The notes under the pieces are model-generated. The model did no database searches, was not told where the DNA came from, and saw only the letters and a list, made by a program, of their open reading frames with translations. The position numbers and the translations under genes are program-made. Shown piece by piece: positions 31,160-56,697 of a stretch of DNA of 64,000 nt. Within the stretch, counting starts at the first letter, position 1, and each line of letters opens with the position of its first letter. Source of the DNA: Candidatus Kaiserbacteria bacterium (GTDB taxonomy: Bacteria; Patescibacteriota; Minisyncoccia; Phycocordibacterales; UBA2100). The stretch lies in assembly GCA_963767115.1 (NCBI GenBank), contig CAVYCR010000005.1, positions 89,582 to 153,581 on the forward strand, given 5' to 3'.

Positions 31160-31498
31160 CTATTTTTGAATGGGCCGGATCGTAACTGCCGTCCCGTAGG
31201 CCGCAACCTCGTTCATAGAATTGCCGATGTCGCCCGTATCGAAGCGCATCGTCAAGACGGCGTTTGCACCTTTCTCCGCTGCAGCCTTCTTCATACGCTC
31301 GATCGCTTCGATGCGACTGTCACTCACGAGCTTGGTGAAGGCATCGATCTCGCCGCCAATGATCGATTGGAGCCCCGCGCCAATAGTGCTGAAGAGGTTG
31401 CGGCTCCTCACGAGCACGCCGAAAACCTCGCCATAGACCTGCACGACCTCATAGCCTGGTACATCGTTGGTAGTCACCACCAAAATAGAATCATTCAT
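31160..31498 (-). CDS. YbjQ/UPF0145 family protein
   Basis: ..VTTN.VPGYEV....G.V.G..VRSRN......AGL....GGEI...T.L....R..A..RM...A...GANAV...RFD. Confidence 0.85.
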   Translation of the reverse strand: MNDSILVVTTNDVPGYEVVQVYGEVFGVLVRSRNLFSTIGAGLQSIIGGEIDAFTKLVSDSRIEAIERMKKAAAEKGANAVLTMRFDTGDIGNSMNEVAAYGTAVTIRPIQK

Positions 31499-32115: not shown

Positions 32116-32646
32116 TTAGCGCTGTGCCCATTCTTTCGCGCGTATTTTAATCGCGGCTATCACGTCCTTCTTTCCACTATCGTAGTCGGCATAATTGTCA
32201 TGATGCTCGGAGTAGAGTTTGCGCTTGGTAGCAATATAAAGATTGCGATCTTCTTCGTTTTGCTGCAGAAAATCTCTAAAGTCTTTGTATTCAGCGATTT
32301 TCGGATTCCCTTCTTGGAGCGTGTGGACACTTACGAGCCGCACCCCTTCGATAGAATCCTGAGTCATATATTCGTCATCTTCTGCGACATATCCGCGGCC
32401 TTTGGGAATAAATCCTTCCTGTATAAAAAGATGATGCTTATCTTTGACCGCATCAAGATCCTTGACCACCGCAAGCACGTCGATCTGCGGCTTCGCCACC
32501 ATGCCAATGATCGAAGTGCTCCCGATATGATCAATCTCTACGAGATTGTCGCCGAAGATCGGCTTCAACTTCTCCGCCGCTTCCAAGAAACGCTCTTTCC
32601 ATGCCGGATCGTATTCGAGTAATTCGTACGTGCGATGCGGTTTCAT
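32116..32646 (-). CDS. GrpB family protein
   Basis: ..VEIDHIGSTSI.GM.AKP.IDVL..V. Confidence 0.8.
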   Translation of the reverse strand: MKPHRTYELLEYDPAWKERFLEAAEKLKPIFGDNLVEIDHIGSTSIIGMVAKPQIDVLAVVKDLDAVKDKHHLFIQEGFIPKGRGYVAEDDEYMTQDSIEGVRLVSVHTLQEGNPKIAEYKDFRDFLQQNEEDRNLYIATKRKLYSEHHDNYADYDSGKKDVIAAIKIRAKEWAQR

Positions 32647-33482
32647 ACGCCTCTGCTACGTCCTCTTCTGTCAAGCGCTTTTTTCTCCTTTTTTCTTCTC
32701 GGTTCGATAACTTTCAAATCTTCTTCAGGCCGAATTAGTTCCGGCTTGATACCGCGAGACAGGAGTGTCTGCCGAGTAGCCCGGCTACTTTTGACCACCT
32801 CTGCATTCATTGCATCTTTGCCGCGAATGTTTTTCTCCTTGATATTGTGGTCGGTCATCGCAAGCGCAAAGTCTTTTGCTCGCAGTTCCACATGACTGTC
32901 GAAATCAGCGAGCGATCTGCCGGTAGGAATTTTGCGCATCTTTTTCAAGTGCGCCGCACCGATCCCGCCATACAGTGCTTCGATGTGCTTATTCTTGAAC
33001 GTCGCAAATTCGACATGCAATGTAATTCCTCTTTGATATACCGTCGACTCGATCTTGCGCTCCGTTTCTCGTAACTTTTGTCGCGCTTCGAGCCGGCGTG
33101 TTTCCTTCTCTCGCTTTTCTAATAACTCTTGTTTGCGTGTTTGGTTTGCAAAGTACGTCTGAGCAAGCGCGACTTGCGGCTTGCGCGGGTCGGCATTCTG
33201 AGCGATCAAATAGCAGGCATAACGCGTGAGAAAGTAGTCTTCTTTCGGGCGGCCGCCGGTACTTTTTACTGGCGCCGGTAAAAAGTGTATTTCCACAGGA
33301 CTACCGCTGATTTTGCATGCCTCTTTTGCCCTTTCGATGGCCTGAACAAACTGCTGCCATTTTACGTAACCAAGCAGAGGCATAAGATCCCGAGCCAGCC
33401 AAAACTCGACAGGATTTTCGTCCTGTGTCGTCCTCTTGACGGATTCGAGATTGTTTTGGATTTGAATCAGCACAGTGTCCAT
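32643..33482 (-). CDS. DNA-damage-inducible protein D (DinD)-like
   Basis: ..EFWLARDLMPLLGY..W..F...I.RAK.AC...G....HF.. ATGA overlap with the GrpB-family gene. Confidence 0.7.
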   Translation of the reverse strand: MDTVLIQIQNNLESVKRTTQDENPVEFWLARDLMPLLGYVKWQQFVQAIERAKEACKISGSPVEIHFLPAPVKSTGGRPKEDYFLTRYACYLIAQNADPRKPQVALAQTYFANQTRKQELLEKREKETRRLEARQKLRETERKIESTVYQRGITLHVEFATFKNKHIEALYGGIGAAHLKKMRKIPTGRSLADFDSHVELRAKDFALAMTDHNIKEKNIRGKDAMNAEVVKSSRATRQTLLSRGIKPELIRPEEDLKVIEPRRKKEKKALDRRGRSRGV

Positions 33483-33922: not shown

Positions 33923-34327
33923 ATGTGTGATATATATGGCTTGGGAAGAACCATCTTGGAGGAAAAGATGTTCTACGTCATCGCACTGGCCGTTATTTTC
34001 GTAGTAGGTATATTTATCGGTTTTATCCGATGCATAAAGAAGTACACATTTCGAATTTTCACCGAAATGCCGGTTATGCAGTGGATTCCATACCACGAAA
34101 TATCGTTTCGCTACTTCGATAATGCTGACTTTTGGACTAGGCTGATCCTAGATGCCCTATACAGGCGCAACTTTATTGAATGTAGGATTATGGAGGGGTT
34201 TGAATGTGCATTCGATATCACTAATCGAACGTTCACTTCTTCGGATATCGAGGTATGTGAGTTCAGGCTTCGCTTCAGGCCACGCAAGAAAAAGTATACG
34301 TTCAATATTGTGCCTCTAGGAGCGTAG
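33923..34327 (+). CDS. hypothetical protein (low GC)
   Basis: ORF track. A terminator-like hairpin lies at about 34383-34410. Confidence 0.4.
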   Translation: MCDIYGLGRTILEEKMFYVIALAVIFVVGIFIGFIRCIKKYTFRIFTEMPVMQWIPYHEISFRYFDNADFWTRLILDALYRRNFIECRIMEGFECAFDITNRTFTSSDIEVCEFRLRFRPRKKKYTFNIVPLGA

Positions 34328-34438
34328 GAACAAGAACCTCAAATGGCTCTTAACACGCTAAAGAACTAATCTTGCTACTGATGCCGGCCCTTGTGCCGGT
34401 ATTTTCTTATTCATTGGGGAAAAAATAGCTGCCCCTCC

Positions 34439-35347
34439 CTAATGATCCTCGGCTCGCAAGCCAAGCTCGAGAACGACAACAGGGGTGTGAATGTGAAGCG
34501 CGGGCTTCGGACGCGCTGCGAGATGGGACTGCGCCCCGGCGTCGCGCCAGTAGGCTACAGCAACGAGAAACATGCGGATCGGAAATGTCATGCGGTAGTA
34601 GATACCGTGCGAGCGCCCGTTATCAAGCAGATGTTCGAGAAGGTCGCGAACGAGAAGTACAGCGGCCGAAGGCTTCATCAATGGCTGAAGTTCGATATCA
34701 ACTTCAAGAGTCGTGGCAATAAGAATATGACGCTCAGCAGCGTCTACGTAGTTCTACAGAACCCCTTCTACTACGGTGTATTCGAGTACCCGGAGAAGAG
34801 CGGCAACTGGTATCAGGGCAAGCACGAACCGTTGATATCCAAGGAATTATTCGAAAAGGTACAGGCGCAGCTCAAGCGAGACAACATACAGCGCGAATCG
34901 CACGAATTCGCCTTCACCAAGCTCATGACCTGCGGCAAGTGCGGATCATGCATCAGTGCTGAGGAAAAATACAAACAGCGAAAAGATGGCACGACCGCCC
35001 GCTACGTCTACTACGGATGCGGACGCACTCGCGACAAACAGTGCAAAGGCAATACGTATCTACGAGAGGAGGAACTCGTAGAGCAATTGCTCAAGATCAT
35101 CGATCAGATCGATATCAACCAGATCAACGTGCAAATGAAATTCGAAGACGAATTGAAACGGCACAATAAATTCCAGCGTACGGTACTTGGACTCTCAGAC
35201 CCGAGTGCAACGCATGAGGAGATCAATATCCGGACCTATGCAAAATACATTCTCAAGGAGGGCACGAATGAGGAGAAGCGCGAGTTGATGGGATGCTTCA
35301 AGTCGAAGTTGAAGATCATGAAAGGGGTTGTGACGATAGAAATCTGA
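34439..35347 (+). pseudogene. 5'-truncated large serine recombinase (lacks the catalytic resolvase domain)
   Basis: Collinear with residues from about 143 to the end of the recombinase at 51974-53305, with an offset of 17961 bp. The 3' ~560 nt are near-identical. Homology starts abruptly at ..LMILGSQAKLENDN. Confidence 0.8.
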
Positions 35348-35368: not shown

Positions 35369-36751
35369 CTATTTCTTATTTAAGTGCTGAACCACTTTAG
35401 AAACAGCTGCGACTTTCTTCTTTAAGCGACGCCCCCGTTTCAGGATAGAGATTTGCTTTGGTATTGCAGGAGCATCGAGAACCGACGCAGTACGCTTGGC
35501 ATAGGCTAGGAAGTTATTTTTTGGAACGCCGAATTTCTGATGAAGTAGTCGCTTCGGTGGTCCAGAACGGCCTTTCGCAAATGCCCCGATCACTGCCCTC
35601 CGCGTCAGCTGATTCATGCGCCGGTCGAACCGTGCGATAGACCCATGTCGCAAGCTCAAGTTTGTCCCATCGGAAACGATCCCGAGGTATTGGATCTGCG
35701 CGGCAATACCAGTGATCGGATCGAGTGATTGCACAACACCATTGTTCACGACACATATGCGACGCACCGTCTTCTGTTCCTTGATTTGAAGTCGAAGTTT
35801 CTTAATCTCTCCCATGACTCTTTCTTCGATCTGCGAAGAGTATTCCGGCGGACAGACGATTAGGATATCATCGGAATAACGTCGATAGAGGCCACCAACT
35901 TCACTGACGACCTTGGCGATTTCTGTATCAAAGTCCAGCATGTAGACATTTGCGAGCGTGCAGCTCAATGCTGCTCCTTGCGGTATACCCTTCGTTTCGC
36001 TTCGCACCTCCTGTAGGTGCCTATCGATTATCTTCGATTTGAATTCGTGCGGAAGAACGATGCGGGACTGCCCGCGCTGCTTCGCATGCACCACCAAATC
36101 GCGCATCCGGCCCTGGCGAACAAACCTATATTTTGTGACTGATCTGAATACCGCCGTATGATCCGCAGGGAGGTTCTCTGCACCGAGAATCTGCGCCCAC
36201 TTCTGTCGTAGCAAGTCATGATCAATCTCCTCATAAAACTTTGATACGTCGAGTGCAATGACTGCGCAGGGAGCGTGATCCCGCATGAATGTAAATGCGT
36301 CTTGCGCGAAGTGAGCCGTACTCATCGCGGTGAACCCGTCGACTGTCTTGATCGCCCGATATGCGATGACGTTGGTCCCTATGCCCCTAATAGCAAGTTC
36401 TGATTCGTATGCATCAGAAATAAGGTTTGCATACCACGAATAAACAAGAGCATCTCCATGAGACGCATAGTCGATAGGTCGTCTCTTGATCTCTCGTTCG
36501 CGATGCCGACTTCCTTTGACGCGGTTTTTCGGATGCCTGAATCGATTCTCTTTGGCATCAATTCGTATGAATGGATAAAACGAGTGCCTCGCTACATTTT
36601 CAGGCTGAAGCATTTCGAGCGTTCTATTTCGGTCGAGCGTCGATATACGACTATCAAAATGAAGGTATTGACGCTTTGCTCGTCGGTCGGGTCGGCGTTT
36701 GAGTTTGTCAGCTTCTTTCTCGAACCATTGTTCCCATTTTGCAGTATTCAT
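35369..36751 (-). CDS. stand-alone reverse transcriptase, Abi/UG (defence-associated) type, not retron, group II or DGR
   Basis: RT motifs RRPIDYASHGDALVYSWY, ALDVSKFYEEIDH, GIPQGAALS, YRRYSDDILIV and YLG. No maturase, endonuclease or retron VTG features were seen. Confidence 0.8.
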   Translation of the reverse strand: MNTAKWEQWFEKEADKLKRRPDRRAKRQYLHFDSRISTLDRNRTLEMLQPENVARHSFYPFIRIDAKENRFRHPKNRVKGSRHREREIKRRPIDYASHGDALVYSWYANLISDAYESELAIRGIGTNVIAYRAIKTVDGFTAMSTAHFAQDAFTFMRDHAPCAVIALDVSKFYEEIDHDLLRQKWAQILGAENLPADHTAVFRSVTKYRFVRQGRMRDLVVHAKQRGQSRIVLPHEFKSKIIDRHLQEVRSETKGIPQGAALSCTLANVYMLDFDTEIAKVVSEVGGLYRRYSDDILIVCPPEYSSQIEERVMGEIKKLRLQIKEQKTVRRICVVNNGVVQSLDPITGIAAQIQYLGIVSDGTNLSLRHGSIARFDRRMNQLTRRAVIGAFAKGRSGPPKRLLHQKFGVPKNNFLAYAKRTASVLDAPAIPKQISILKRGRRLKKKVAAVSKVVQHLNKK

Positions 36752-37219
36752 AATTCAAGTACACCCGACACCCCCTGGGCTCCTGGTGCCTCAAGGCTAG
36801 CGCCTTTGGTCAGGGGTGTGGGCAGCGATTCGCGAGGACGTTCGAGACGTCGTTTACCATCTGTGACGGCCAGGAAAATAAAACGTGTACATTATAATTC
36901 ATGCAATGAACATGACCGAACGATTCATACACCTTGCGATGCATGCCGTGGCTGCGTTCCTGCTGATGACATCGAGCGATAATCCTCGCGGATTGACTCC
37001 TATCAACTTCATGCCCCGTGAACACTAACGAACACGGGGGCTCGCGAATCGGGCACTAAGGCCACATTTGATATTACGCTTCCTAGTTACGAGGTCAATA
37101 TTGAAAACCCACTCGAACACAAGCGTAACGGCAGATGATCTGAAACATCACCCTACAAGAACATGAAATGCGGTTCTTTCGAATCCTTTGCCCTCTCTAG
37201 ACTTATCGAAAAAGTGACG

Positions 37220-37301
37220 CATAACCGGCGCTCAAAATAAGGCTCGGCATAGCACCGATAACAAGTACTGACTGCGGGGTGTTTGGTACGAGGTTGGAAC
37301 T
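37220..37301 (-). repeat. att-like scar: copy of the tRNA-Ser 3' flank plus a degenerate tRNA 3'-like motif
   Basis: cataaccggcgctcaaaataaggctcggcatagcaccgataacaagtact compared with 54692-54746, about 85-90% identical by eye. It is followed by gtgtttggtacgaggttggaact. Confidence 0.65.
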
Positions 37302-37304
37302 AGT

Positions 37305-37835
37305 TTAGGTTAAAAAACCCTTATTTCTACCGTCATCAACAATTTTATCCAACTCTTTTAAGTATTCTTCACATATAGAGAATATGTCTTCGTCACCCTG
37401 CCAGTCACTAAAAGTATATTTACTTGAAATAATCCCGTTATCGATAGCACTTTGGAATGGTTGAAATTTGCCGATCGACTGCCCTTTTATATTTCCATCC
37501 TTATCTTTGTGTACCATTGATACAGAATCGCTAATATGTATAGTTTCTGATAGCATCAATGAAATATCGCGTTTAAACTCAAGAGGTTCAGTGTGAATAT
37601 TGAAATCTCTTTTGTCTTTCAAAAAATCTACTACCTTGTTGTTTGTCACTTGGTTGTCATACCATCTTTTGCCATCATCTTTAGACTCAGCTTCTTTTAA
37701 AGCATATTGTAAAACCGATCGAGAAGATGATAAAAAAGCACTTAGATTAAATTTAAAACCTTCTCTATTTTCTTTCTCTTTTACCATCTGAGAGTAAAAG
37801 TATTTTGCTTCAAGAAGCTTATCTATTTCATTCAT
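37305..37835 (-). CDS. hypothetical protein (low GC cassette gene 1)
   Basis: ORF track. AT-rich codon usage unlike the flanks. No domain recognised. Confidence 0.6.
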   Translation of the reverse strand: MNEIDKLLEAKYFYSQMVKEKENREGFKFNLSAFLSSSRSVLQYALKEAESKDDGKRWYDNQVTNNKVVDFLKDKRDFNIHTEPLEFKRDISLMLSETIHISDSVSMVHKDKDGNIKGQSIGKFQPFQSAIDNGIISSKYTFSDWQGDEDIFSICEEYLKELDKIVDDGRNKGFLT

Positions 37836-37848: not shown

Positions 37849-37873
37849 GTGTATTTGGTACGAGGTTGAAACT
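37849..37873 (-). repeat. second copy of the 23-25 nt tRNA-3'-like motif
   Basis: gtgtatttggtacgaggttgaaact compared with 37279-37301 gtgtttggtacgaggttggaact. Confidence 0.6.
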
Positions 37874-37904
37874 CTCTTAGGATAGAAGAACTTAATTTAG
37901 TTGC

Positions 37905-39131
37905 CTATTCTCGCGCCTTATATATTTCGAGGAAAAGCTGCGATAGTTCATTGATACCCGAGGTCTGGATACCTTGCCCCTTAAAAGAAACTGGACATCC
38001 TCTTCCTCTGGAAGGAAGTCGATCAAGCTCTTGATCTTGAGCTTCTTTAATTTCACCCGTTGAGAGTGCTTGCTTTATTTTCTGCATCTCATCAAGAATA
38101 TGAGGATTAAGAATAAGCTTGCCTTGTGCATCTTTTTGTACAAGTTCGGAAAGATATTTTCCCATCAAAGAGAAAGGGCCGATATAGCCTGGTGGAGCAA
38201 GATATCCGAGCTGATTTGGCAATTCAGCCTTTATTAAATCCTCGATAAACTTTTCTGAATCATCGTAGCCATCTTTTTTCTCTGACGAGAGTTGAGCGAC
38301 AGCTTGACCCAAAGTAACTATACCTTCTTGTAATGCCTTTAGCGCAGCCATACTCATATCATTGAGTAGGCGGAGGTCCTCTTCTCCGCGAGCAGTTTTT
38401 GCAAAAATATCTTTATGTGCTTCAACTAGCTGCGCAGATTTTTCTTCTAGAACGGAGGTGCTCTTGAGCATAATTTCGACTGTTTCGTAAATCTTCTTTG
38501 CTACAGTTGGTCCATATTCGCCAACAGGAATAACAACGAATGGCGGGAGCATTTTACTATTTTCTTTTGACCACGACTTGCCAAACAAAATCTGTGGGGC
38601 ATTTTTTACTTTAAATTTTTTATCCCATATTTCCTGCTCGTTGTTGAGATGCCCGGCATTATGCTCGGCAAATGCTGCGACCTGAGCGAAAAGTGGACTT
38701 ACGGATTCTGAATTAAAGCCCTTTTTCATTTCTTCAATAATTACTTCGATATGATTCTCAAAATGTATTTCACTCATCGGAGAATCTTTACGATTGGTTC
38801 GTCTTAAAAATTCCTTATATCCAATCCCTCCAATCTCTTGATTTCTTAGTAATGACGGTAATTCATTCATCCCAAAACCTAAGAAGTCCATACAGCTTGT
38901 CAAAGAGGAATAATTTGGACTCATTTCCGGTTTATATTCTTCAAGTTCCAGAAATTCGGGATTTGGTTTTGAAACTCCATTCTCGCGCACGGAGGAAACA
39001 TAGTCGCCAATGAATGGCGTAAGAACATTTCGCAAAACTCGCAAATGTTCTACCGCCTCTTTCTTATCAGGAGCCTTCTCGTCATTTTTAGGATGATCGA
39101 CTTCTCTTGCCGACAGTTTTTCTAGTCCCAT
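37905..39131 (-). CDS. hypothetical protein (low GC cassette gene 2)
   Basis: ORF track, 408 aa. No domain recognised. Confidence 0.6.
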   Translation of the reverse strand: MGLEKLSAREVDHPKNDEKAPDKKEAVEHLRVLRNVLTPFIGDYVSSVRENGVSKPNPEFLELEEYKPEMSPNYSSLTSCMDFLGFGMNELPSLLRNQEIGGIGYKEFLRRTNRKDSPMSEIHFENHIEVIIEEMKKGFNSESVSPLFAQVAAFAEHNAGHLNNEQEIWDKKFKVKNAPQILFGKSWSKENSKMLPPFVVIPVGEYGPTVAKKIYETVEIMLKSTSVLEEKSAQLVEAHKDIFAKTARGEEDLRLLNDMSMAALKALQEGIVTLGQAVAQLSSEKKDGYDDSEKFIEDLIKAELPNQLGYLAPPGYIGPFSLMGKYLSELVQKDAQGKLILNPHILDEMQKIKQALSTGEIKEAQDQELDRLPSRGRGCPVSFKGQGIQTSGINELSQLFLEIYKARE

Positions 39132-39260
39132 GTTCCTGATTGTATCAGATATCCCTTATCACTGGGATACCTCTTTACACTTGATATTCAACAGTGCTTA
39201 ATATGTCCTAATGTCTCTCAAAACCCACTACGGGGGCAGTCGTCTAACAGCTACAGACAA

Positions 39261-39317
39261 GGGCTCGACATAGGTCCGATACAAAATACTACGGGCGGGC
39301 ATCCGACGTTTCGAACT
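39261..39317 (-). repeat. pseudo-tRNA-Ser 3' fragment plus flank copy (att scar)
   Basis: The minus strand reads GTTCGAA-N11-CCGCCCGTAGTA. It has the same length and ends as the tRNA T-loop-to-3'-end plus flank (GTTCGAATCCCTGCCTCTCCGCCCGTAGTA). Confidence 0.7.
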
Positions 39318-39785: not shown

Positions 39786-42700
39786 TCAATTTGACAGATG
39801 AGTTCCGCACAGATCGATTTCTTTCATGACATCTATAGTACCTTTGAGCGAGACAACCATCTTCTCGTAGTTCTCGAATTCAGCGGTGGTTAGCTTCTGC
39901 CCCTTACGATCCTTGAGATATTTTTGTGCGGGTTGGTATCCGCCGATATAAAACTCCCACACATCTTTTGGCACACCGTCCCAATACTGCGAGGCATTGA
40001 TATAGACGCGACCGTCTGAATAACTTATCTTGTCGACAATGTCCGACGATGCAATAGGAAATGTCGTGATCGGTGTCTCGACGAGAGGGTCAGTCAACAG
40101 ATGCATCCCTCGCAACTTCCTGCCGAGCGGCACGAGCCGCCAAAACTTTTCTTTATCTTTCGGATAGGGCACGCGCGGAAAATCACTCTTCAAGAACTCG
40201 GCATACGTTGCTCGATATGACGGAGAGTGCAGCATTGCATATACATAATCAAAAATGTCTTCCGGCCTCGTCGGACCCACAGTAAGTTCTATTTTCAGAA
40301 CAATCATTGGATCGAGATTCGGCTTCTTCTCGCCCTTTTTGTAGAGATACAGAGGGGATATATAATTTGTCTCTTTAATCGATACCCGGCGGGCGTCGGA
40401 AATCTTATCGGTCAAAAATATGTCAGCAAAATCGCGAGACCCCTCAATATGCTTATTTGATACAAGTCCGACATTATCACCATCTAGGAAATCATGCATT
40501 ACACTTCTTCGTGAACGCTCAATAAAATCATCGCTGTAGTAAATATATTTTTGATCAAACGGTCGATACGATATTGGTACGATATTGTGCGCATCAAATG
40601 TATGCTTCTGTGCGTTCACTATTTTCCATTTCTGATTTTCACCGAGCGCATATTTGCGTACCGCTTCGTTTGGAGAAATCATAAGAAAATCTTCTATCCG
40701 CTTGGCGAGTACGTCTTTAGATTGATCGATTACGAATGCATCGCGCGAGGTAACGATGCCGACCGTGTTTATTGGGAATAATTCTGCAACAGAAAATCCC
40801 TGCAAATAATCGCTCTTGCCCTCACCTTCCACCTTCCAAGTATCAGCGTTCTCCGGAAGTTCGTTCCAAACAATCGTATCAACCGTTCCCATCGTGAGTG
40901 CTTCGAATTTCTCTGAGCGCAAACCAAACAGATCAGCTTTGAAAATCGTTGCGAGCGGCTTCCTTTTTTTCTTGTCGCCGAGCCGTTTCTTGATGCCAAA
41001 AAATATCGAGACACCCGTCTTGATGTCGAAGACATTTTCGTCTTTTCCGCCGTCCTGTGTCGTCTCTTTCTTGTTGCTGTTGCCGTGCAAGTCGAGCACA
41101 TAGATCGCATCGAAGGTGTCGCGCAAGTGCCAACGCATCCCGCGGAATGTTGGGTTGTCGATGTAGCCGTGCGAGGTGATCATGCCAACAATTCCCTCGC
41201 CATTTTTCTCGATCATTGTTTCGGCGAAGCGGATGAACTTTACATAATCATCGTTGATCCATTTGCTGTTTTTCTCTTTCAACTTTTCTTTGCCACCCGG
41301 TTCGACCTTGTATGCATCGTTAGCCGTATAGTGAGGATTCATAGATTCGCCTGAGTACGGCGGATTGCCCATCACGACCATGATCGGATACTCGCGTTTG
41401 ACACGCGAGGCAAGGCGGCTTTCCTCGGCAATACTCTCAACCGCACCGAAGAGACTATGGATGAGCGGGATGTCGTGCGCTTCGTCAAGCGTGTTGGTGA
41501 GATAGACGCCGAGCCGATGCTTGAGATCGTTGAGGCCGGTGTGCTTCAGTGTCATGGCAATCTTGAGATGCGCAATCGTATAGCTCGCCATCATGAGTTC
41601 AAATCCATGCAGGCGCGGTAAGAGATCATCTTCTACATATGCGCCCCAACGACCCTGCGCGCCCTTCTGCGATTCGTGGATGTGCGTGATCGTTTCGTTG
41701 AGGAATGTCCCTGTACCCGTCGCCACGTCGAGAAGTTGTACGCGATGTGTGTCGATATCAACTCGCTTCTCTTTCCCTTTATCGAGCACCGTCGTCGAAC
41801 GCTCGATACGAGAGTTGTCAGCGATACCCTTGCTGATGCCAAACTCCCGTTTCAAGAGGTCGTCGATGCCGCGGATGATGAATCGCACCACCGGAAGCGG
41901 TGTATAGAAGACACCCATTTCCATCTTCTTCTGCGGATCATATTCACGCAGGAAATCTTCGTAGAAATGTATAACGGGGTCGGGCAGGTCGGCATTCACA
42001 TCTTTGTTCTTGAAATATTCCTCCATGAGCGCCTTCACATCGGCGTGCGTGAAGACTGTGCACAGTTCGTCGACAATGACGCTCAGACGTCGCGGGAAAG
42101 ATGTACCGGCAATATGATCGAAGAAACTTTGTAGAAACGGGTTGGTTTTGGGGATGAGACTTCGTGCTTCTTGGCGGTTGAATGTGTCGGCTGTCGGATC
42201 GTTGTAACGCGCGGCGAAGAGACCATACACGATTGTCTGCGCATACATGTCGGCGAAGTCGGTGGTCGTGAAAGTCGTGATGAGATTTTCCCGAATGAAA
42301 CGCATCATGCGTTCGAGCTCATCCTTTTCTTGGCTCGTGCTTTCAAGGAACGCGATCACGTTGTCACGTATGCGCTGCGCCTTGCCGCCCATGATGCGCG
42401 CGAGGTGTGCGCCGCTTTTGATCGGCTCTTTCTGCGACTCGACGAAGTCGTGCATGGTGCGCGCAAGCCGCTCGCCCTGGCCCGGGTGCGGGATGAACGT
42501 GCCACGCTTCACATCGACGGTTGCGAGGCGCAAATGTTCGTCGTATGGCTCGCCATTGCGATAAAATCTAAATTCGCAGTAGTCACTGATGATGAGGTTG
42601 GTGTAGCCGAAGTACCGGCTCGCCTGCGAGGACTTCTCGATCTTGTTGAGGTCTTCACCGACTTTCTTCACTTCAATATACAAAAGAGGAACATCGTCTT

Positions 42701-42914
42701 TCAGCACGATGAAATCGGGCTTGTTGCCGCTCTGTGCTTTGGGATCGTGTTGAATGTGAAAGTGCCCGCTCGCAGGAAAGACGGAGCTGAGATAATTCTG
42801 AAACGCGGTTCGGTATGACATCTCCGAGCTGCTCACGTCATGAAAATAGCTTTCGACCGACGAGAGATAGGTATTGACATTGGGACCATTGTTAATTGTT
42901 CGTTCTGAGGTCAT
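39786..42914 (-). CDS. type IIG/IIL (MmeI/Eco57I-like) restriction-modification enzyme: PD-ExK nuclease plus gamma N6-adenine methyltransferase plus TRD
   Basis: N-terminal KPDFIV..x..IEVKK, AdoMet motif LDVATGTGTF and catalytic VMGNPPYSGE. 1042 aa. Confidence 0.85.
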   Translation of the reverse strand: MTSERTINNGPNVNTYLSSVESYFHDVSSSEMSYRTAFQNYLSSVFPASGHFHIQHDPKAQSGNKPDFIVLKDDVPLLYIEVKKVGEDLNKIEKSSQASRYFGYTNLIISDYCEFRFYRNGEPYDEHLRLATVDVKRGTFIPHPGQGERLARTMHDFVESQKEPIKSGAHLARIMGGKAQRIRDNVIAFLESTSQEKDELERMMRFIRENLITTFTTTDFADMYAQTIVYGLFAARYNDPTADTFNRQEARSLIPKTNPFLQSFFDHIAGTSFPRRLSVIVDELCTVFTHADVKALMEEYFKNKDVNADLPDPVIHFYEDFLREYDPQKKMEMGVFYTPLPVVRFIIRGIDDLLKREFGISKGIADNSRIERSTTVLDKGKEKRVDIDTHRVQLLDVATGTGTFLNETITHIHESQKGAQGRWGAYVEDDLLPRLHGFELMMASYTIAHLKIAMTLKHTGLNDLKHRLGVYLTNTLDEAHDIPLIHSLFGAVESIAEESRLASRVKREYPIMVVMGNPPYSGESMNPHYTANDAYKVEPGGKEKLKEKNSKWINDDYVKFIRFAETMIEKNGEGIVGMITSHGYIDNPTFRGMRWHLRDTFDAIYVLDLHGNSNKKETTQDGGKDENVFDIKTGVSIFFGIKKRLGDKKKRKPLATIFKADLFGLRSEKFEALTMGTVDTIVWNELPENADTWKVEGEGKSDYLQGFSVAELFPINTVGIVTSRDAFVIDQSKDVLAKRIEDFLMISPNEAVRKYALGENQKWKIVNAQKHTFDAHNIVPISYRPFDQKYIYYSDDFIERSRRSVMHDFLDGDNVGLVSNKHIEGSRDFADIFLTDKISDARRVSIKETNYISPLYLYKKGEKKPNLDPMIVLKIELTVGPTRPEDIFDYVYAMLHSPSYRATYAEFLKSDFPRVPYPKDKEKFWRLVPLGRKLRGMHLLTDPLVETPITTFPIASSDIVDKISYSDGRVYINASQYWDGVPKDVWEFYIGGYQPAQKYLKDRKGQKLTTAEFENYEKMVVSLKGTIDVMKEIDLCGTHLSN

Positions 42915-44948: not shown

Positions 44949-45989
44949 TTATATCCCAGCTTCTTCCCTTAATCCTCTCGCATTGCCGTGGCCCAATAAT
45001 CCCCGATAAGATTGACGGACCACTTCGTTTTCCTGTTCTCCCAATTTCCGAAACATTCGGCGTTTTGTGGCAGTCCGAAGTACGCGATGGTCAGGAAAAT
45101 GCACCCACCCGAGGAAATCGACGCCCGAGGCGAGCGAACTGATAAACAGCTTGTTGGGATGAAGCGAGAGTTTGAGGCGCAATTCGAGAAACGAGGCAAT
45201 CTGCGGGACGAGCGTTTCAAGTTTTTCTTTGTCGTCTGAAAGAATCACGAAATCGTCTGCATAACGAATGTAGCAGTTCGCTTTTACCTTGTGCTTCACG
45301 AATTGATCGAACTCGTTCATGTATACGTTGACGAGCAGTTGCGATGTGAGATTGCCGAGCGGAAGACCCTTTCCTTTTTCAGTTGTGTGGAAGCTTCCTA
45401 CAATTTCTGCAACAAGATTGACGATACGTTCGTCTGGAATATATCGTGCAACTATTTCAAACATTATGGCTTGGTCGATCGAAGCGAAGAACTTTCGTAT
45501 GTCGCATTTTAAAACCCAGCACGTTTGCGTTTGATTCTTTGAAACTATCCATGCCATCGCGCGAAACCGATTCATCGCGCGATGCGTTCCCTTGTCTTTC
45601 CGACACGAATACGAGTCGGCAATAAACGTGCGATTGAAAAACGGAAAGAGCTTCCGATACAGTGCGTGATGTAGAAGCCGATCACACACGCTTGCCTTAT
45701 GTATGTCGCGCGGCTTCGGCTCGGCAATCTTGAAGGCGTGGTATTCGCTATGCCTATATACGCCGTTAGCGAGGTCTCGATGGAGCGCAAGAATGTTATC
45801 CATCAGCCGGTATTGGAATTCCTGCACGTCTTTCTTCTTTCTTTTGCCGCGTAGGAATTCCTTCCATGCGGCGAGCAAGTTTTCGACAGAAATGATATCG
45901 TCATAGTTATGACCGAAGTGGATGCCTTTAACGTACCCCCCCCCCGCACGAATCTTGCCTGTTATTGAGCATGGAGTATCAGTGTACAA
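44949..45989 (-). CDS. diversity-generating retroelement reverse transcriptase
   Basis: DGR hallmark LGNLTSQLLVNVYMN (I/LGxxxSQ) and YIRYADDFVIL. Adjacent TR, VR and Avd. Confidence 0.9.
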   Translation of the reverse strand: MYTDTPCSITGKIRAGGGYVKGIHFGHNYDDIISVENLLAAWKEFLRGKRKKKDVQEFQYRLMDNILALHRDLANGVYRHSEYHAFKIAEPKPRDIHKASVCDRLLHHALYRKLFPFFNRTFIADSYSCRKDKGTHRAMNRFRAMAWIVSKNQTQTCWVLKCDIRKFFASIDQAIMFEIVARYIPDERIVNLVAEIVGSFHTTEKGKGLPLGNLTSQLLVNVYMNEFDQFVKHKVKANCYIRYADDFVILSDDKEKLETLVPQIASFLELRLKLSLHPNKLFISSLASGVDFLGWVHFPDHRVLRTATKRRMFRKLGEQENEVVRQSYRGLLGHGNARGLREEAGI

Positions 45990-46302
45990 GCAGTGGCATG
46001 AATACCGAGAGGACTTTCCAAAATCATCCCGCTATACACTCGGCGACAGGATAGACCTTCTTTTTGTTCATATTCTTGAACTACTATTTACCGCAAGTTA
46101 CCAAAGCAAGGAAGCGAAGCTGCCGACACTCGAGATGGCGGTACGAAAAATTGACGTATTGAAATTCCTGTTACGCGTCGCATGGGAGCTTCGGGCACTC
46201 GACACGAAAAAGTACGCGGTGCTATCGGAAAAATTAGATGAATTTGGTCGAATGGTCGGCGGTTGGAAGAAAGGACTGGGAACCAAAACTCCCGCCAGAT
46301 AG
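45922..46302 (+). CDS. avd: Avd-like accessory variability determinant (four-helix-bundle, 23S rRNA IVS protein family)
   Basis: ..FPKSSRYTLGDRI......ILE....A.......K...L......ID.LK.LLR.A.EL......KY..L...LDE.GRM.GGW.K pattern. 126 aa. Confidence 0.75.
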   Translation: MPLTYPPPARILPVIEHGVSVYKQWHEYREDFPKSSRYTLGDRIDLLFVHILELLFTASYQSKEAKLPTLEMAVRKIDVLKFLLRVAWELRALDTKKYAVLSEKLDEFGRMVGGWKKGLGTKTPAR

Positions 46303-46328
46303 TAGAGGCGGGAGAAACTCGGTAGTTT

Positions 46329-46443
46329 CGGGAGAGAGAACCCGATTGCCGGCGTTCCACCTGTTGTCGTCGCGGTTCCACGTGTTCACGTTCCACTTCG
46401 AGTTGTCGGCGTTCCAGTTCACGTTCACGACACAGGAACTCTC
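46329..46443 (-). other. DGR template repeat (TR)
   Basis: About 113 nt collinear with the VR. It encodes the AAC-rich SSCVVNVNWNADNSKWNVNTWNRDDNRWNAGNRVLSP. It differs from the VR only at its adenines. Confidence 0.9.
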
Positions 46444-46757
46444 GTATCCGAAGCCGTCTGTGCCACCACCCATCGAATACTCTACGGGCTGTATCTGATT
46501 CGGGGCATCGAAGCCCGCTGACCTCGGATACCAACTGACCAATGTTTTTGTGGAGACCGGCTACGCACACTTCCTTAAGCCGTGGCCGAAAGAATTCTAA
46601 CGAAGCCGTTTCCGAAATCTCCGCGCTCAAGCCTTAACCGGAGCGCCACCAGAAATTTCATATGTAGTATATCAAAAAGAAAATCCCCGGGCCCAGTGAC
46701 AAAGTGTCAAAGGGTCCGAGGATTCAGCTCGCCAAGGGCGAGCAAAGGTGCAGAGGG

Positions 46758-47417
46758 TCAGTTGGCGGGAGAGAGAACCCGAACGCCGGCGCTCCACCCG
46801 AGGCCGCCGCGGTCCCACGTGTTCACGCCCCACTTCGAGCTGACGGCGCGCCAGAACACGAACACGACACAGGAACTCGTGTAGAACAGGTTGGCGTAGC
46901 CGTTGTTCAGCAAATCGCCTTCCTTGCCCTCGGGCTGTTTGGAGATCATCTCGGCGACGACGGCGCACAGCGCGCCCTCGTCCCAAAGGTGATTCTTGGG
47001 CAAACCGTTTTCGATTTCCTTGTCCGTCAAGTCCGCGCCGAGTTCATCGACATTGACCTTGAAGGTAGTGCCGGTGTTGATCGGCTTCGCCAACTTGACC
47101 ACGCGAGTCTGGAAGTCGTCCCAGACGTAGAGTCCGTCGCGCGTCTTGAAGAAGGCGTCGGGGTTGCGATGGTCGGAGTCGGTAATCGTGATGGAAAGCT
47201 GCGGACGGCGGATGAGTGCCATCATGCTCTTAATTACATCTTCGATAGCGGTTTCGAGCCGTCCCGCGAGGATTTCGGTCTTGTCCTTGATCCCCGCGAG
47301 CACCACCTTGGGATCGCCGAATTTCGCGGCGACTTTCGGCAATGCGACCGCGAGCGCACTGGTAACGTTCGAGTTGAGTTCGGCCATCTGGCCGGGACTG
47401 AAGGCTGTTCCACTCAT
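46758..47417 (-). CDS. DGR variable (target) protein
   Basis: The C-terminal 38 aa are encoded by the VR. It is a paralog of 13531-14004. Confidence 0.85.
   Translation of the reverse strand: MSGTAFSPGQMAELNSNVTSALAVALPKVAAKFGDPKVVLAGIKDKTEILAGRLETAIEDVIKSMMALIRRPQLSITITDSDHRNPDAFFKTRDGLYVWDDFQTRVVKLAKPINTGTTFKVNVDELGADLTDKEIENGLPKNHLWDEGALCAVVAEMISKQPEGKEGDLLNNGYANLFYTSSCVVFVFWRAVSSKWGVNTWDRGGLGWSAGVRVLSPAN
46766..46880 (-). other. DGR variable repeat (VR)
   Basis: Offset +437 from the TR. There are 19 substitutions, all at TR A positions (plus-strand T), and 0 at the roughly 85 non-A positions. Confidence 0.9.
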
Positions 47418-47775: not shown

Positions 47776-49065
47776 ATGAAAAAAGTAACAAAAACGAATC
47801 TCACATGGAAAACGGAAAAGCGCATCATCAGCCAGCTCATCGGCCACCCGAAGAACCCGCGCAAGATGAGCGAATCGCAGATGCGGAATCTTCAAGAAAG
47901 CCTCAAACGGTTCAATCTCGTCGAGATACCTGTAGTGGATACCGATAACACGATATTGGCTGGACACCAGCGGTTGAAAGCGATGCAGCTTGCCGGACGC
48001 GGCGAGGAAGAGATCGACGTGCGCGTACCCAATCGAAACCTCACCGAAACAGAGCGCGAGGAGTATCTACTGCGCAGCAACCAAAACACGGGAAGCTGGG
48101 ATGAGGAATTACTCAAAGCGATGGACATGGACATGCTTCTCGACGTCGGTTTCGGCGACGACGAGCTGCAAACCATCTTCGATGATATCGATGTCATCGA
48201 GGACGATTTCGACGTCGAAAAAGCGCTCAAGGAGACAAAGGTTGCTCGGGTAAAACCAGGCGAACTGTGGCAGCTCGGCAGCCACCGTCTCCTCGTGGGT
48301 GATTCAACCGATGCCGAACAGGTCAAAAAACTGATGGGTACCGACCGAGCGGATGTCGTGTACTGTGACAGCCCGTACAACATCGGACTCGATTACTCGA
48401 AAGGAATCAGTACCGGCGGCAAATACGAAGGTACCTACACAAGCGCGAAAGATTCCAAGAAAGACGTGGCCTTCGGCGCATTTCTCGATGCGAGCATGAA
48501 AGCCGCGCTCTCCGTGGCCAAGCCAAACGCACACCTATTATATTGGTGCGACGAGAAGTATATCTGGCTCCTGCAATCGCTGTATCGAGAAAATGGCATC
48601 GACAACAAACGCGTCTGCCTGTGGATCAAGAACAACTTCAACATGACTCCGCAGGTCGCATTCAACAAGGCATACGAGCCGTGCGTGTATGGAGTTATCG
48701 GCAAGCCATATCTCAACAGTGAACTGCGCAATACCAACGAGCTTCTGAACAAAGAGATCGGATCAGGTAATCAGGTGCACGAGGAAATCCTCGACATATT
48801 CAATCTCTGGCTGGCACGTAGGGATAACGCGCAATCATATCAGCACCCGACTCAAAAGCCGGTCGCGCTCAACGAGAAGCCACTGAAGCGTTGCAGTGCT
48901 CCGGGACACATCGTGCTCAGCGGCTTTGCCGGTAGTGGAAGCGATCTCATCGCATGCGAACAGCTCAATCGCAAGTGGCGGGGTGTCGAGATCGATCCGA
49001 TCTTCGCCACCGTCTGCATCGACCGGTGGGAGTCCTTTACCAACCAACGCGCGACACTCATATGA
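47776..49065 (+). CDS. ParB-like nuclease domain fused to an N4/N6 DNA methyltransferase
   Basis: ParBc motif ..HPKNPRKM...L..SL..F.L...PVV......ILAGHQRL, then DSPYN, HPTQKP and FAGSGS methylase motifs. Confidence 0.85.
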   Translation: MKKVTKTNLTWKTEKRIISQLIGHPKNPRKMSESQMRNLQESLKRFNLVEIPVVDTDNTILAGHQRLKAMQLAGRGEEEIDVRVPNRNLTETEREEYLLRSNQNTGSWDEELLKAMDMDMLLDVGFGDDELQTIFDDIDVIEDDFDVEKALKETKVARVKPGELWQLGSHRLLVGDSTDAEQVKKLMGTDRADVVYCDSPYNIGLDYSKGISTGGKYEGTYTSAKDSKKDVAFGAFLDASMKAALSVAKPNAHLLYWCDEKYIWLLQSLYRENGIDNKRVCLWIKNNFNMTPQVAFNKAYEPCVYGVIGKPYLNSELRNTNELLNKEIGSGNQVHEEILDIFNLWLARRDNAQSYQHPTQKPVALNEKPLKRCSAPGHIVLSGFAGSGSDLIACEQLNRKWRGVEIDPIFATVCIDRWESFTNQRATLI

Positions 49066-49811
49066 GCGTCGAGCAAGGAGATATCTTCTCCGTCGGTGAG
49101 CACATCATCGCGTGCGGCGATTCGCTCGATGCGACATTCGTGAGTAAGGTCATTGGAGACAAAAAGATCAGATGCATTCTCGTTGATCCCCCGTACGCCG
49201 TCTCCTACGTCGAGGGCAAGCGAGATTTCAACAAGCTGGGCGTGAATACGGACAAAGCGATCATCGGCGATCAGCTGCAATCCGACGAGGAATACGCTCG
49301 CTTCACGGGAGCGTGGCTCGAGGCGGTAAAGCCGCACCTAGAGCCGTACAATGCCTGCTACATCTTCAACAGCGATCTTATGTACCCTGCGCTGCGCCAA
49401 GGCATGAAGGATGCCGGGTTCTATTACTCCCAAGGTCTGATATGGATCAAGAATACGGTTGTCCTCGGCAGGAAAGATTATCTCCCCATGCACGAGCTCA
49501 TCGCGTACGGCTGGTGCGGCAAACACAAGATGGAACGCAGCAAAGCAAAAAGCATACTCTTCCACCCAAAACCAGCTGCATCGAAACTTCATCCCACACA
49601 GAAACCCATCGGACTCCTGCGTAAATTGATACCGAATTCGACGCGCCTGAGAGACTACGTGTATGACCCCTTCTTAGGCAGCGGGAGTACCGCTGTCGCC
49701 TGCGAGCACCTCGGCCGAAGGTGTGTCGGGATAGAAATTGATCCTGCGTACGCGGGAATTGCAATAGCGCGTATGGAGAAGCTCACCGGACTTGTCGCGC
49801 GAAAACTATGA
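49062..49811 (+). CDS. N4/N6 DNA methyltransferase (beta class)
   Basis: VDPPYA, HPTQKP and DPFLGSGST motifs. ATGA overlap with the upstream gene. Confidence 0.85.
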   Translation: MSVEQGDIFSVGEHIIACGDSLDATFVSKVIGDKKIRCILVDPPYAVSYVEGKRDFNKLGVNTDKAIIGDQLQSDEEYARFTGAWLEAVKPHLEPYNACYIFNSDLMYPALRQGMKDAGFYYSQGLIWIKNTVVLGRKDYLPMHELIAYGWCGKHKMERSKAKSILFHPKPAASKLHPTQKPIGLLRKLIPNSTRLRDYVYDPFLGSGSTAVACEHLGRRCVGIEIDPAYAGIAIARMEKLTGLVARKL

Positions 49812-51973: not shown

Positions 51974-53305
51974 ATGGATCAAATCATCGAGCGACCATTC
52001 CCCGGAGGACAGATCGGGAGACCGGAACTGAAGATCGTTCCGCTCAAGTTTTGCCTCTACGCTCGCAAGAGCACCGAGAGCGAAGAACGGCAAGTGCTCT
52101 CCATCGACTCGCAGATCAAGGAGATGCTCCAGCTGGCTGAGCGCGAAGGATTGGAGATTGTCGCGATGAAGCGCGAGAGCCACTCAGCCAAAGAAGCAGG
52201 ACAGCGTCCCGTCTTCAACGAGATTGTCGAAGAAATGAAAACGGGAAAGTTCAACGCGATTCTCACGTGGGCACCGGATCGCATCTCACGCAACGCTGGC
52301 GACCTTGGGAAAGTCATCGACCTCATGGACGCCGGAGTGCTGATGGAGATCCGCACGTATAGTCAGTCGTTCCGTAATAACCCGAACGAGAAGTTTCTCC
52401 TGATGATTCTGGGGAGTCAGGCAAAACTCGAGAACGACAATCGCGGCGTAAACGTAAAGCGAGGACTTAGAACGCGCTGCGAGATGGGACTGCGGCCCGG
52501 AAGCACGTTGACCGGATATCTCAACGAACGGCGAATGGACCGGAAGTGCGAGGTCATCATCGATCCGGATCGCGGGCCGGTGATACGGAAGATGTTCGAG
52601 AAAGTCGGTTATGAAAAGTGGTCAGGGCCGCGATTGTATCATTGGCTCCGGTTCGAACTGAACTTTCAGACGCAAGGCAAGAAACCGCTCTCACTCGGCA
52701 ACATGTACCGCATTCTTTCCAACCCCTTCTACCATGGCATATTTGAGTATCCACGAAAGAGCGGCAACTGGTATCAGGGCAAGCACGAACCGTTGATATC
52801 CAAGGAATTATTCGAAAAGGTACAGGCGCAGCTCAAGCGAGACAACATACAGCGCGAATCGCATGAGTTCGCCTTCACGAAACTCATGACCTGCGGCAAG
52901 TGCGGATCGTGCATCAGTGCCGAGGAAAAGTACAAGCAGCGCAAGGATGGCACGACCGCACGATACGTCTACTACGGTTGTGGGCGTACGCGTGACAAAC
53001 AGTGCAAAGGCAATACGTATCTGCGAGAGGAGGAACTCGTAGAGCAACTGCTCAAGATCATCGACCAGATCGACATCAACCAGATCAACGTGCAAATGAA
53101 ATTCGAGGACGAATTGAAACGGCACAACAAATTCCAGCGCACGGTACTTGGTCTCTCAAATCCGAGCGCTACGCATGAGGAGATCAATATCAGAACATAT
53201 GCAAAATACATCCTGAAGGAAGGTACGAACGAGGAGAAACGCGAGCTGATGGGGTGCTTTAAGTCGAACTTCAAAGTCAACAATGGGGCTGTGACGATCG
53301 AGTAA
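51974..53305 (+). CDS. large serine recombinase (resolvase N-domain, recombinase domain, zinc ribbon)
   Basis: ..YARKSTESEERQVLSIDSQ.. catalytic Ser region, ..W.PDRISRN.., and a CGKCGS..YYGC zinc ribbon. Confidence 0.9.
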   Translation: MDQIIERPFPGGQIGRPELKIVPLKFCLYARKSTESEERQVLSIDSQIKEMLQLAEREGLEIVAMKRESHSAKEAGQRPVFNEIVEEMKTGKFNAILTWAPDRISRNAGDLGKVIDLMDAGVLMEIRTYSQSFRNNPNEKFLLMILGSQAKLENDNRGVNVKRGLRTRCEMGLRPGSTLTGYLNERRMDRKCEVIIDPDRGPVIRKMFEKVGYEKWSGPRLYHWLRFELNFQTQGKKPLSLGNMYRILSNPFYHGIFEYPRKSGNWYQGKHEPLISKELFEKVQAQLKRDNIQRESHEFAFTKLMTCGKCGSCISAEEKYKQRKDGTTARYVYYGCGRTRDKQCKGNTYLREEELVEQLLKIIDQIDINQINVQMKFEDELKRHNKFQRTVLGLSNPSATHEEINIRTYAKYILKEGTNEEKRELMGCFKSNFKVNNGAVTIE

Positions 53306-53310
53306 AAACT

Positions 53311-56569: not shown

Positions 56570-56584
56570 GTATGACAACGCGTT

Positions 56585-56670: not shown

Positions 56671-56697
56671 GGCACACACCCGCAGAATTAAATCTTT

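Follow-up and report, generated by a model that had tools for sequence, protein, structure and literature searches.

A divergent DRT2 locus in a Patescibacteria genome: a conserved upstream RNA and a probable neo gene with a GUU jump motif

What is the role of a reverse transcriptase (RT) gene that stands alone on its strand, preceded by several hundred nucleotides (nt) without a convincing gene, in the genome of a Candidatus Kaiserbacteria bacterium? This RT gene lies in a 64,000-nt stretch of contig CAVYCR010000005.1 (assembly GCA_963767115.1, positions 89,582 to 153,581), which is referred to as the window and to which all coordinates below belong; the original prediction had taken it, together with a structured upstream non-coding RNA (ncRNA), for a single-gene defense module of the UG/DRT2 type. 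DRT2 is among the most unusual defense mechanisms known, since the defense gene exists only after reverse transcription. The published hallmarks of this neo gene synthesis, described for the UG2 class 2 defense RT of Klebsiella pneumoniae (KpnDRT2; PDB 9c0i/9c0j), are a template of about 120 nt with a short direct repeat at its borders and a length divisible by three (3n), an antisense stop-free frame, and −10 and −35 boxes that are brought together as a promoter only where one repeat is joined to the next (Tang et al. 2024, PMC11100668; Wilkinson et al. 2024, PMC12039810). Published annotation of Neo is mostly limited to a single proteobacterial clade (539 of 2,116 homologs); for DRT2 homologs outside the KpnDRT2-like clade, ncRNAs were predicted, Neo was described as “more challenging” to annotate, and whether the mechanism differs there was left open (Tang et al., PMC11100668). 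In the portion of Table S1 of the same paper that covers at least 295 rows, all marked “Neo identified,” no Candidatus organism is named. For the locus described here, we consider it very likely that it is a DRT2 (UG2) antiphage system working by neo gene synthesis, i.e., rolling-circle reverse transcription. With less confidence, we regard it as rather likely that neo synthesis extends beyond the Klebsiella-like clade and that a Patescibacteria branch re-implements the same logic with a GUU/AAC jump, a junction shifted by 3 nt, a leaderless mRNA lacking a Shine-Dalgarno (SD) sequence, and an extra helix that would clamp the template.

Judging from profile scores, the RT is a member of the DRT2 (UG2) family by a wide margin over other families. 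The PADLOC Drt2 models matched it with 404 and 338 bits (the former for PDLC03757, E = 2.3e-121), the next-best PADLOC family being RT_UG17 with 85 bits, and the NCBIfam Drt2 model (NF041746) scored 372.5 bits against a curated equivalog cut-off of 390. The best match among solved structures was the K. pneumoniae DRT2 RT (PDB 9c0i and others; E = 4.4e-67, 230 bits), residues 26–439 of the window RT being aligned to residues 11–417 of the 425 in 9c0i. The RT consists of 460 amino acids (aa), and its catalytic loop lies in GGLYRRYSDDILIV, with Y292, S293, D294, and D295 invariant in the homologs. RVT_1 was the sole Pfam domain (E = 1.4e-13), and no maturase or endonuclease domain was detected with Pfam. 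The extended N-terminus is genuine: M1, W9, and the KRQYLHFD block are kept in homologs and align to residues 11–18 of the Klebsiella DRT2 RT; some gene callers take M47 as the start (P0001). Database homologs are mostly unnamed metagenomic proteins, and the few named ones are called “antiviral reverse transcriptase Drt2” (Candidatus Paceibacterota, Nomurabacteria, Komeilibacteria, and similar). The single-gene arrangement was apparent from the end-to-end alignment with the 425-aa Klebsiella RT and from the flanking genes, which differ in every related locus. The minus-strand RT with its YSDD motif, its DRT2 character, and the lack of a partner gene were all found as the original prediction had described them. 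Because the literal ACA feature of the Klebsiella-like systems is absent and the NCBIfam threshold is narrowly missed, the locus is filed as a divergent DRT2 member, not as a Klebsiella-like DRT2.

The upstream region was compared in nine related loci, namely that of the window, one with a 90% identical RT (L081), and those of seven lineages with RTs at 48–55% identity; a metagenome scan for further close relatives added no upstream regions above 41% identity. The gene-free stretch upstream of the RT is 420–880 nt long in each of the relatives, and in the window the gap between the RT and the next minus-strand open reading frame (ORF) upstream (37305–37835) is 553 nt. A conserved element extends from a sigma-70 promoter to the RT ATG in all nine loci (RTs 48–90% identical), with the positions of the TTGACC and GTATAAT boxes conserved in most of them, and the sequence 5′ of this promoter is unrelated among the loci, save in L081. 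An nhmmer profile of the ncRNA matched the eight loci with a complete upstream region at E = 1e-70 to 1e-86 and L082, cut at a contig end, at 2e-48. Searched against 169 DRT2 loci, the same profile found the close clade only, with no convincing match in the 160 other loci, and within the window the covariance model found the element once, adjoining the RT. Scanning of the 34–40 kb region against Rfam 15 at E ≤ 1 gave no matching family, including group II intron and retron RNAs. Two ORFs of at least 50 aa are present in the gap, a 71-aa minus-strand frame (36810–37025) and a 174-aa plus-strand frame (36458–36982). A small protein encoded by either of them was considered and rejected: indels of 1, 2, and 4 nt occur in the homologous alignment, and since such non-3n indels are spread across both frames, neither is a conserved coding frame.

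Conservation of the upstream region together with the RT was the test that the original prediction had preset, and this conservation was found, as was the lack of a convincing upstream ORF. The upstream element had been drawn at 36752–37219; it stands as far as the promoter, and the outermost part, 37099–37219, does not belong to it, being shared with L081 alone and representing the flank of an att site.

The minimum free energy (MFE) fold of the whole gap was not significant alone (z = −1.59), and that of the trimmed ncRNA (36752–37065; z = −2.56, 1 of 100 shuffles as stable) was only suggestive by itself; both H2 and H7 (Table 1) were present in the single-sequence MFE fold of the trimmed region. 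The structure set, composed of the consensus fold and manual additions, comprised 60 proposed pairs (538 cells of the MAFFT alignment), and its controls were partners slid by 1–3 columns, which preserves the relatedness of the sequences, and 500 shuffles. Among the cells, 89.4% were paired, against 37–47% with slid partners, and 31 of the 60 pairs had changed on both sides, against 6–14 in the slid controls. None of the 500 shuffles matched the observed pairing values, these counts not being probabilities, as the sequences are related. Moreover, each hairpin refolds in every individual sequence of the set.

The long-range helix H1 comprises 11 pairs, eight of them with changes on both sides (for example, CGCG/CGCG to TATG/CATA). 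H2 (pairs 43–68 in alignment A3) folds in all nine loci, its two segments being 100% and 81% paired and seven pairs having changed on both sides. The central region of the ncRNA contains two weaker helices. The pseudoknot is paired in 100% of the cells in all nine loci and is nearly invariant, with one compensatory change, UCUUGG/CCAAGA, in L086. The original prediction had pointed to a long imperfect hairpin at about 36763–36822 and to a 7-bp stem at 37014–37039; they correspond to H7 and H2, and according to the alignment, eight other lineages retain the two hairpins, with compensatory changes.

The predicted template is bordered by two conserved GU(U/A) motifs, whose spacing is 123 nt in the window and either 120 or 123 nt in every one of the nine loci. 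The third base of the second motif is T in six loci and A in the other three, and the homology between the two sites extends over 3–4 nt in six loci and 2 nt in three; GUU-1 was also recovered as the junction homology by an independent finder (see below). In the antisense direction, circular frame 0 is stop-free in each of the nine loci, and the remaining two antisense frames are closed. The probability of an open frame was 0.05–0.21 per shuffled unit, the product over eight lineages being approximately 4e-8. Length differences among the peptides correspond to whole-codon indels. The repeat of the window encodes VYIIIHAMNMTERFIHLAMHAVAAFLLMTSSDNPRGLTPIN, and the nine repeat peptides are hydrophobic (grand average of hydropathy 0.57–0.99) with a conserved pattern; a hydrophobic peptide has also been published for Neo (PMC12039810). 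Note that a brute-force scan, in which every 3-nt direct repeat of the 553-nt gap was examined for a circular frame free of stops, resulted in 242 candidates and was uninformative alone. The 123-nt unit was picked out by the comparative data only.

The plus strand of the template carries −10-like and −35-like boxes at the same positions in all nine loci, and in genomic order the −10 box lies upstream of the −35 box. A promoter scan of this strand at the template in its genomic arrangement found no promoter. Because of this order, the neo promoter would be inactive in the genome until the repeats are joined. Joined repeats would read TTGACT-CCTATCAAC/GTGTACAT-TATAAT (the slash marks the junction) with a 17-nt spacer, and this distance across the junction is 17 nt in all nine loci; the predicted junction sequence is ...GGATTGACTCCTATCAAC/GTGTACATTATAATTC.... 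The split-promoter finder, which knows only two hexamer matrices (−35 and −10) and makes no use of the GUU alignment, returned this split promoter as its top-scoring −35/−10 pair in eight of the nine loci, implying the same repeat length. So, two independent features, border homology and promoter spacing, lead to one and the same repeat length. The 123-nt template, the split promoter, and the stop-free antisense frame had been overlooked in the original prediction, whose RT and ncRNA are retained here.

Translation of neo was considered in the light of the other genes of the window. An SD-like motif was present in only about 7 of 25 inspected window genes, several of which have a TATAAT-like box 7–12 nt before the ATG; this suggests that leaderless or very short-leader mRNAs are frequent in this Patescibacteria genome. 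Genes with a −10-like box close to the ATG include those at 32643–33482, 12186–13340, 37905–39131, and 31160–31498. With the likeliest ATG so close to the −10 box, a leaderless or nearly leaderless neo mRNA is plausible.

Application of the finder to proteobacterial loci recovered the published layout for Vibrio, Aeromonas, and Ferrimonas (d = 120, ACA homology 11 nt before the −10 box) and gave d = 132 with CAA for Pseudomonas, in agreement with the corresponding entries in the portion of Table S1 covered here (Tang et al., PMC11100668). Candidates were returned for 76 of 161 DRT2 upstream regions, against 13–15 of 161 in two kinds of control region. The best split promoter implied a length divisible by three in 59 of 74 DRT2 loci, with no reading-frame condition imposed. 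In a crude neighbor-joining tree of 158 DRT2 RTs, built from BLOSUM distances and lacking support values, all ACA/CAA loci fell into one block, and the window RT grouped with Patescibacteria and other non-proteobacterial DRT2 RTs apart from it. In the separate block that holds the window's clade, the detectable junctions were of the GUU type and located 4–9 nt before the −10 box. Border motifs seem to differ between clades. Additionally, heuristic annotation gave GUU-type junctions, split promoters, and 3n repeats of 120–150 nt for many non-proteobacterial DRT2 RTs, namely those of L009, L021, L093, L096, L098, L109, L118, L132, L151, and L166.

Taken together with the Klebsiella system, these features lead to the following proposed mechanism. 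A constitutive sigma-70 promoter would drive joint transcription of the RT mRNA and the ncRNA, which is about 313 nt long. The RNA is predicted to fold into a 5′ hairpin, the closing helix H1, the handle H2, a loosely structured 123-nt template, and a pseudoknotted 3′ scaffold (H5, H6, and H7 with H8). The RT would bind the scaffold and copy the template from beside GUU-2 to GUU-1; the 3′-terminal AAC of the complementary DNA (cDNA) could then pair again with GUU-2, and repetition of this process would give a head-to-tail concatemer of 123-nt repeats. Upon phage infection, the concatemer would become double-stranded, and each junction would set TTGACT 17 bp upstream of TATAAT, creating a promoter nonexistent in the genome. 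The mRNA from this junction promoter would be antisense to the ncRNA and begin at or within about a base of the ATG, and its stop-free frame would be translated into a repeating 41-residue hydrophobic peptide, (MNMTERFIHLAMHAVAAFLLMTSSDNPRGLTPINVYIIIHA)n, presumed to arrest the infected cell.

Table 1 Coordinates of the features of the DRT2 locus and its islet in the window
Feature	Coordinates	Strand	Basis or remark
RT gene (DRT2/UG2), 460 aa, ATG start, YSDD, no extra domains	35369–36751	minus	ORF and profile matches
ncRNA–RT promoter, sigma-70 type: TTGACC, 16-nt spacer, TAATAT	37071–37098	minus	Promoter scan
DRT2 ncRNA, about 313 nt	36752–37064	minus	Nine loci; 5′ end estimated from the −10 box, 3′ side abuts the RT ATG
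5′ hairpin of the ncRNA		minus	Consensus fold
H1, 5′ strand CGATTCGCGAG; long-range helix enclosing handle, template, H5, and H6	37041–37051	minus	Covariation
H1, 3′ strand CTCGCGAATCG; partner of 37041–37051	36826–36836	minus	Covariation
H2 hairpin (7-bp stem), close to the template on its 5′ side; corresponds in position to the Klebsiella “5′ handle”	37014–37039	minus	Covariation
Template region, 123 nt (41 codons); predicted cDNA repeat is the reverse complement and reads on the plus strand	36885–37007	minus	Motif distance, stop-free frame
GUU-1; would template the 3′-terminal AAC of each cDNA repeat; positional analog of ACA-1	37005–37007	minus	GTT invariant in 9/9
GUU-2, directly 3′ of the template; putative landing site of the template jump, analog of ACA-2	36882–36884	minus	GT invariant
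Pseudoknot, 5′ strand UCCUGG	36870–36875	minus	Pairs with 36781–36786
Pseudoknot, 3′ strand CCAGGA; loop inside the H7 “tower”	36781–36786	minus	Covariation (helix 6)
H5 hairpin CCGUC...GAUGG, 3′ scaffold	36857–36869	minus	97.8% paired, two pairs changed on both sides, folds in 9/9
H6 hairpin, 3′ scaffold	36837–36852	minus	Hairpin at the same place in 9/9, with differing stem sequences
H7 “tower,” long imperfect hairpin holding H8 and the pseudoknot loop	36763–36823	minus	12 pairs, 92.5% paired
H8 hairpin inside H7	36793–36806	minus	Folds in 9/9, covarying stems
Putative neo −35 box TTGACT, near the 3′ end of the cDNA repeat	36993–36998	plus	TTGACx, TTGCCx, or TGGACA at the same position in 9/9
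Putative neo −10 box TATAAT	36893–36898	plus	TATAAT, TATGAT, TATCAT, or TACAAT in 9/9
Probable neo start ATG, codon 8 of the repeat, 7 nt past the −10 box, no SD	36906–36908	plus	Met in 6/9 loci
Large serine recombinase remnant, 3′ two-thirds, residues 143–444	34438–35347	plus	Pfam Recombinase and Zn_ribbon_recom, no Resolvase
Att-like repeats from the tRNA-Ser 3′ end and flank, outer islet edge	37220–37326		37220–37269 90% identical to 54692–54741

The genomic surroundings show how the module is carried. The host was taken to be a Patescibacteria (candidate phyla radiation, CPR) bacterium because the PilM housekeeping protein of the window is 70–74% identical to Paceibacterota, Parcubacteria, and Kaiserbacteria proteins. 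The DRT2 module is the cargo of a small decayed serine-recombinase islet at tRNA-Ser. The recombinase beside it aligns to full copies from residue 143 only (tblastn), the catalytic resolvase domain being missing; at 34013–34437, where this domain would be expected, unrelated sequence is found, including a 134-aa ORF at 33923–34327. In L081, tRNA-Ser(tga) is followed by the att flank, the ncRNA, the RT, and a convergent full-length 444-aa serine recombinase. A full recombinase is also present in the window at 51974–53305, with 92% DNA identity to the DRT2-linked recombinase of L081 (window 51974–54835 versus L081 1792–5136). The slot between its 3′ end and tRNA-Ser(gct) contains a different gene (53311–54588), whose 425-aa product matched phrog_27609 (function unknown) with 348 bits and had no Pfam, PADLOC, or NCBIfam match. 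This synteny with L081 bears out the earlier remark that the RT and the 425-aa gene occupy the same cargo slot: the position between the recombinase 3′ end and tRNA-Ser acts as an exchangeable cargo position, and because of this behavior, the 425-aa gene is a candidate defense gene. The att-like stretch 54692–54741 adjoins tRNA-Ser(gct) (54744–54835), and the same flank directly follows tRNA-Ser(tga) in L081.

Further att-like repeats derived from the tRNA-Ser(gct) 3′ end or flank were observed, the whole series being located at 37220–37326, 37851–37898, 39260–39316, and 54692–54767. They bracket single unknown genes (176 aa, 37305–37835; 408 aa, 37905–39131) as well as larger blocks, and this looks like serial islet insertion and decay at one tRNA gene. 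The term “orphan” used in the original prediction fits the RT itself, and the module as a whole is not isolated: besides being islet cargo, it lies in a defense island (32–54 kb) with a type IIG restriction enzyme, methyltransferases, a PDC-S13/DinD-like gene, and a diversity-generating retroelement (DGR). The defense-type genes of this island are distributed over 32643–33482, 39786–42914, and 47776–49811 and comprise the PDC-S13/DinD-like gene (292 bits), the type IIG restriction-modification gene (894 bits), and two adjacent or overlapping N6/N4 methyltransferase ORFs. The DGR is complete (44949–47417, minus strand), with a 346-aa RT (44949–45989), a template repeat (46329–46446), and a variable repeat (46766–46883) located at the 3′ end of the ORF at 46758–47417, all mismatches between the 118-nt copies being at template adenines. 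Beyond tRNA-Ser, at 54899–59784, the window contains genes of an HlyD-type membrane-fusion protein and a 1028-aa AcrB-family RND transporter, which is unexpected for Patescibacteria; these bacteria are generally considered to lack an outer membrane.

Comparison of the sequences directly supports the RT family, the conservation and covariation of the ncRNA, the 3n repeat, the stop-free frame, and the split promoter. Several points weigh against neo synthesis as the interpretation. The synthesis of cDNA, the template jump and its junction, triggering by phage, translation and toxicity of Neo, and defense itself are proposed for this locus and its clade by homology to the Klebsiella system. The ACA-1 and ACA-2 trinucleotides are absent from the template borders, where the conserved border repeat is GUU and GU(U/A), and the homology at the junction is as short as 2 nt (GU) in three loci. 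The NCBIfam score lies narrowly below the Drt2 equivalog cut-off. The covariance model of the 3′ scaffold is confined to the clade and one marginal match (L002, 28.6 bits), and neither it nor the nhmmer profile yielded an alignment to the proteobacterial DRT2 ncRNAs, so that it is the shared layout, and no alignment, that suggests homology between this RNA and the ncRNA of Klebsiella. The codon-position signal in the repeat is weak, the differences at positions 1, 2, and 3 being 0.46, 0.41, and 0.52; no in-frame ATG is preceded by a ribosome-binding site (RBS), and the first ATG occurs at different positions in different loci. The nine loci are related sequences, so shuffle-based counts overstate their independence. 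Finally, the carrier islet is decayed, with its recombinase truncated, and the module could be heading for loss.

Some of these points would also suit other explanations of the locus. It might be that tandem-repeat cDNA is made, with the DNA or RNA itself as the effector and no Neo translated; the product would then resemble that of DRT10/UG17, where a class 2 RT with an ncRNA and a SLATT effector performs telomerase-like synthesis of tandem-repeat DNA (PMC12632851). The in-frame ATGs without SD sequences, the first of them at no fixed codon, and the weak codon-position signal are compatible with this, and Tang et al. mentioned that DRT2 clades other than the Klebsiella-like one might use different mechanisms (PMC11100668). 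However, without translation it is difficult to account for the 3n repeat, the stop-free frame, and the whole-codon indels in all nine loci, the rebuilding of a promoter at the junction means that transcription at the least takes place, starts without SD sequences or leaders look normal in this genome, and neither SLATT nor any other effector gene is linked in the homologous loci; an untranslated effector is therefore quite improbable in our estimation. The decay of the islet could alternatively mean that the RT and ncRNA are an inactive relic no longer in use, the recombinase having lost its catalytic domain (residues 1–142), and the several att-like remnants do testify to repeated insertion and decay at tRNA-Ser. 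Yet the 460-aa RT frame is uninterrupted and keeps every invariant family residue, and the ncRNA has lost none of its helices and still has the two promoters, the two GUU motifs, and the open frame; as loss of mobility does not imply loss of cargo function, we consider such a relic unlikely.

The assignment of the RT to a different class of retroelement (retron, group II intron, or DGR), with its structures representing msr/msd, intron domains, or a template repeat, deserves mention since an RT with an adjacent structured RNA is common to all these classes and a genuine DGR is located 8 kb away in the window. The scores are far lower than the 372–404 bits of the Drt2 models: 43–47 bits for the retron RT models (cut-offs of at least 235; 47 bits for the NCBIfam retron St85 RT) and 60 bits for the group II intron RT model TIGR04416 (cut-off 300). 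The Rfam scan and the domain content of the RT given above point the same way, and no template repeat/variable repeat pair with adenine-specific differences occurs near 35–37 kb. At the level of these tools, a retron, group II intron, or DGR identity is refuted by family scores, Rfam, repeats, and domains, making it extremely unlikely, and the original prediction was right to see no features of these classes. Neo gene synthesis by a DRT2 system is thus the explanation that we prefer.

The kind of system is already known, and what is new is its CPR branch with a different jump motif and modest variant features; current understanding is not overturned, and the value of the result is incremental. 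On the level of sequence, this extension answers what Tang et al. had left open. The window locus and its eight relatives provide a clean sequence-level case for the same design in a remote branch, where the jump motif differs and translation is plausibly leaderless, and the split promoter together with the 3n repeat is suggested as a motif-independent route to neo genes. If true, the “challenging” three-quarters of the DRT2 tree could be annotated by split promoters and 3n repeats, not by ACA motifs. Also if true, CPR bacteria would carry a working abortive-infection system of the DRT2 type as swappable tRNA-Ser islet cargo, here in a small-genome bacterium and in the hot-swap slot of a serine-recombinase islet.

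Compared with known systems, the locus resembles DRT10/UG17 in that a class 2 UG RT has an adjacent ncRNA template that would be copied repeatedly into tandem repeats, and differs from it in a UG17 score far below that of Drt2, in the absence of SLATT or another partner gene, and in having a coding 123-nt repeat and a promoter predicted to be rebuilt at the junction. Among DRT2 systems outside the Klebsiella-like clade, the window's clade permits clean annotation of a neo-type ORF and split promoter. The likeness to KpnDRT2 comprises the following: a single RT gene without an extra domain, homologous over its full length; a same-strand upstream ncRNA of about 300 nt sharing the RT promoter; the order of 5′ hairpin, template of about 120 nt, and pseudoknotted hairpin scaffold of about 130 nt (133 nt here, 132 nt in KpnDRT2); a short direct repeat at both template borders with a 3n repeat, a stop-free antisense ORF, and a hydrophobic repeat peptide; and −10 and −35 boxes that are out of order in the genome and 17 bp apart once concatenated. 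At the same time, the host here is a Patescibacteria bacterium, and the window RT has about 15 additional N-terminal residues. The jump motif is GUU (AAC in the cDNA) instead of ACA (TGT), and the junction divides the promoter spacer into 9 nt on the −35 side and 8 nt on the −10 side, versus 6 and 11 nt in KpnDRT2. No GGAGG is present and the ATG lies 7 nt past the −10 box, whereas in KpnDRT2 the ATG is about 13 nt past it with an RBS. The scaffold is not alignable to proteobacterial DRT2 ncRNAs with the models built here, and the equivalence of its helices to the tower and buttress of KpnDRT2 is suggested by position only. The covarying H1, which encloses the template and part of the scaffold, would be a further difference, as it was matched to no described KpnDRT2 element.

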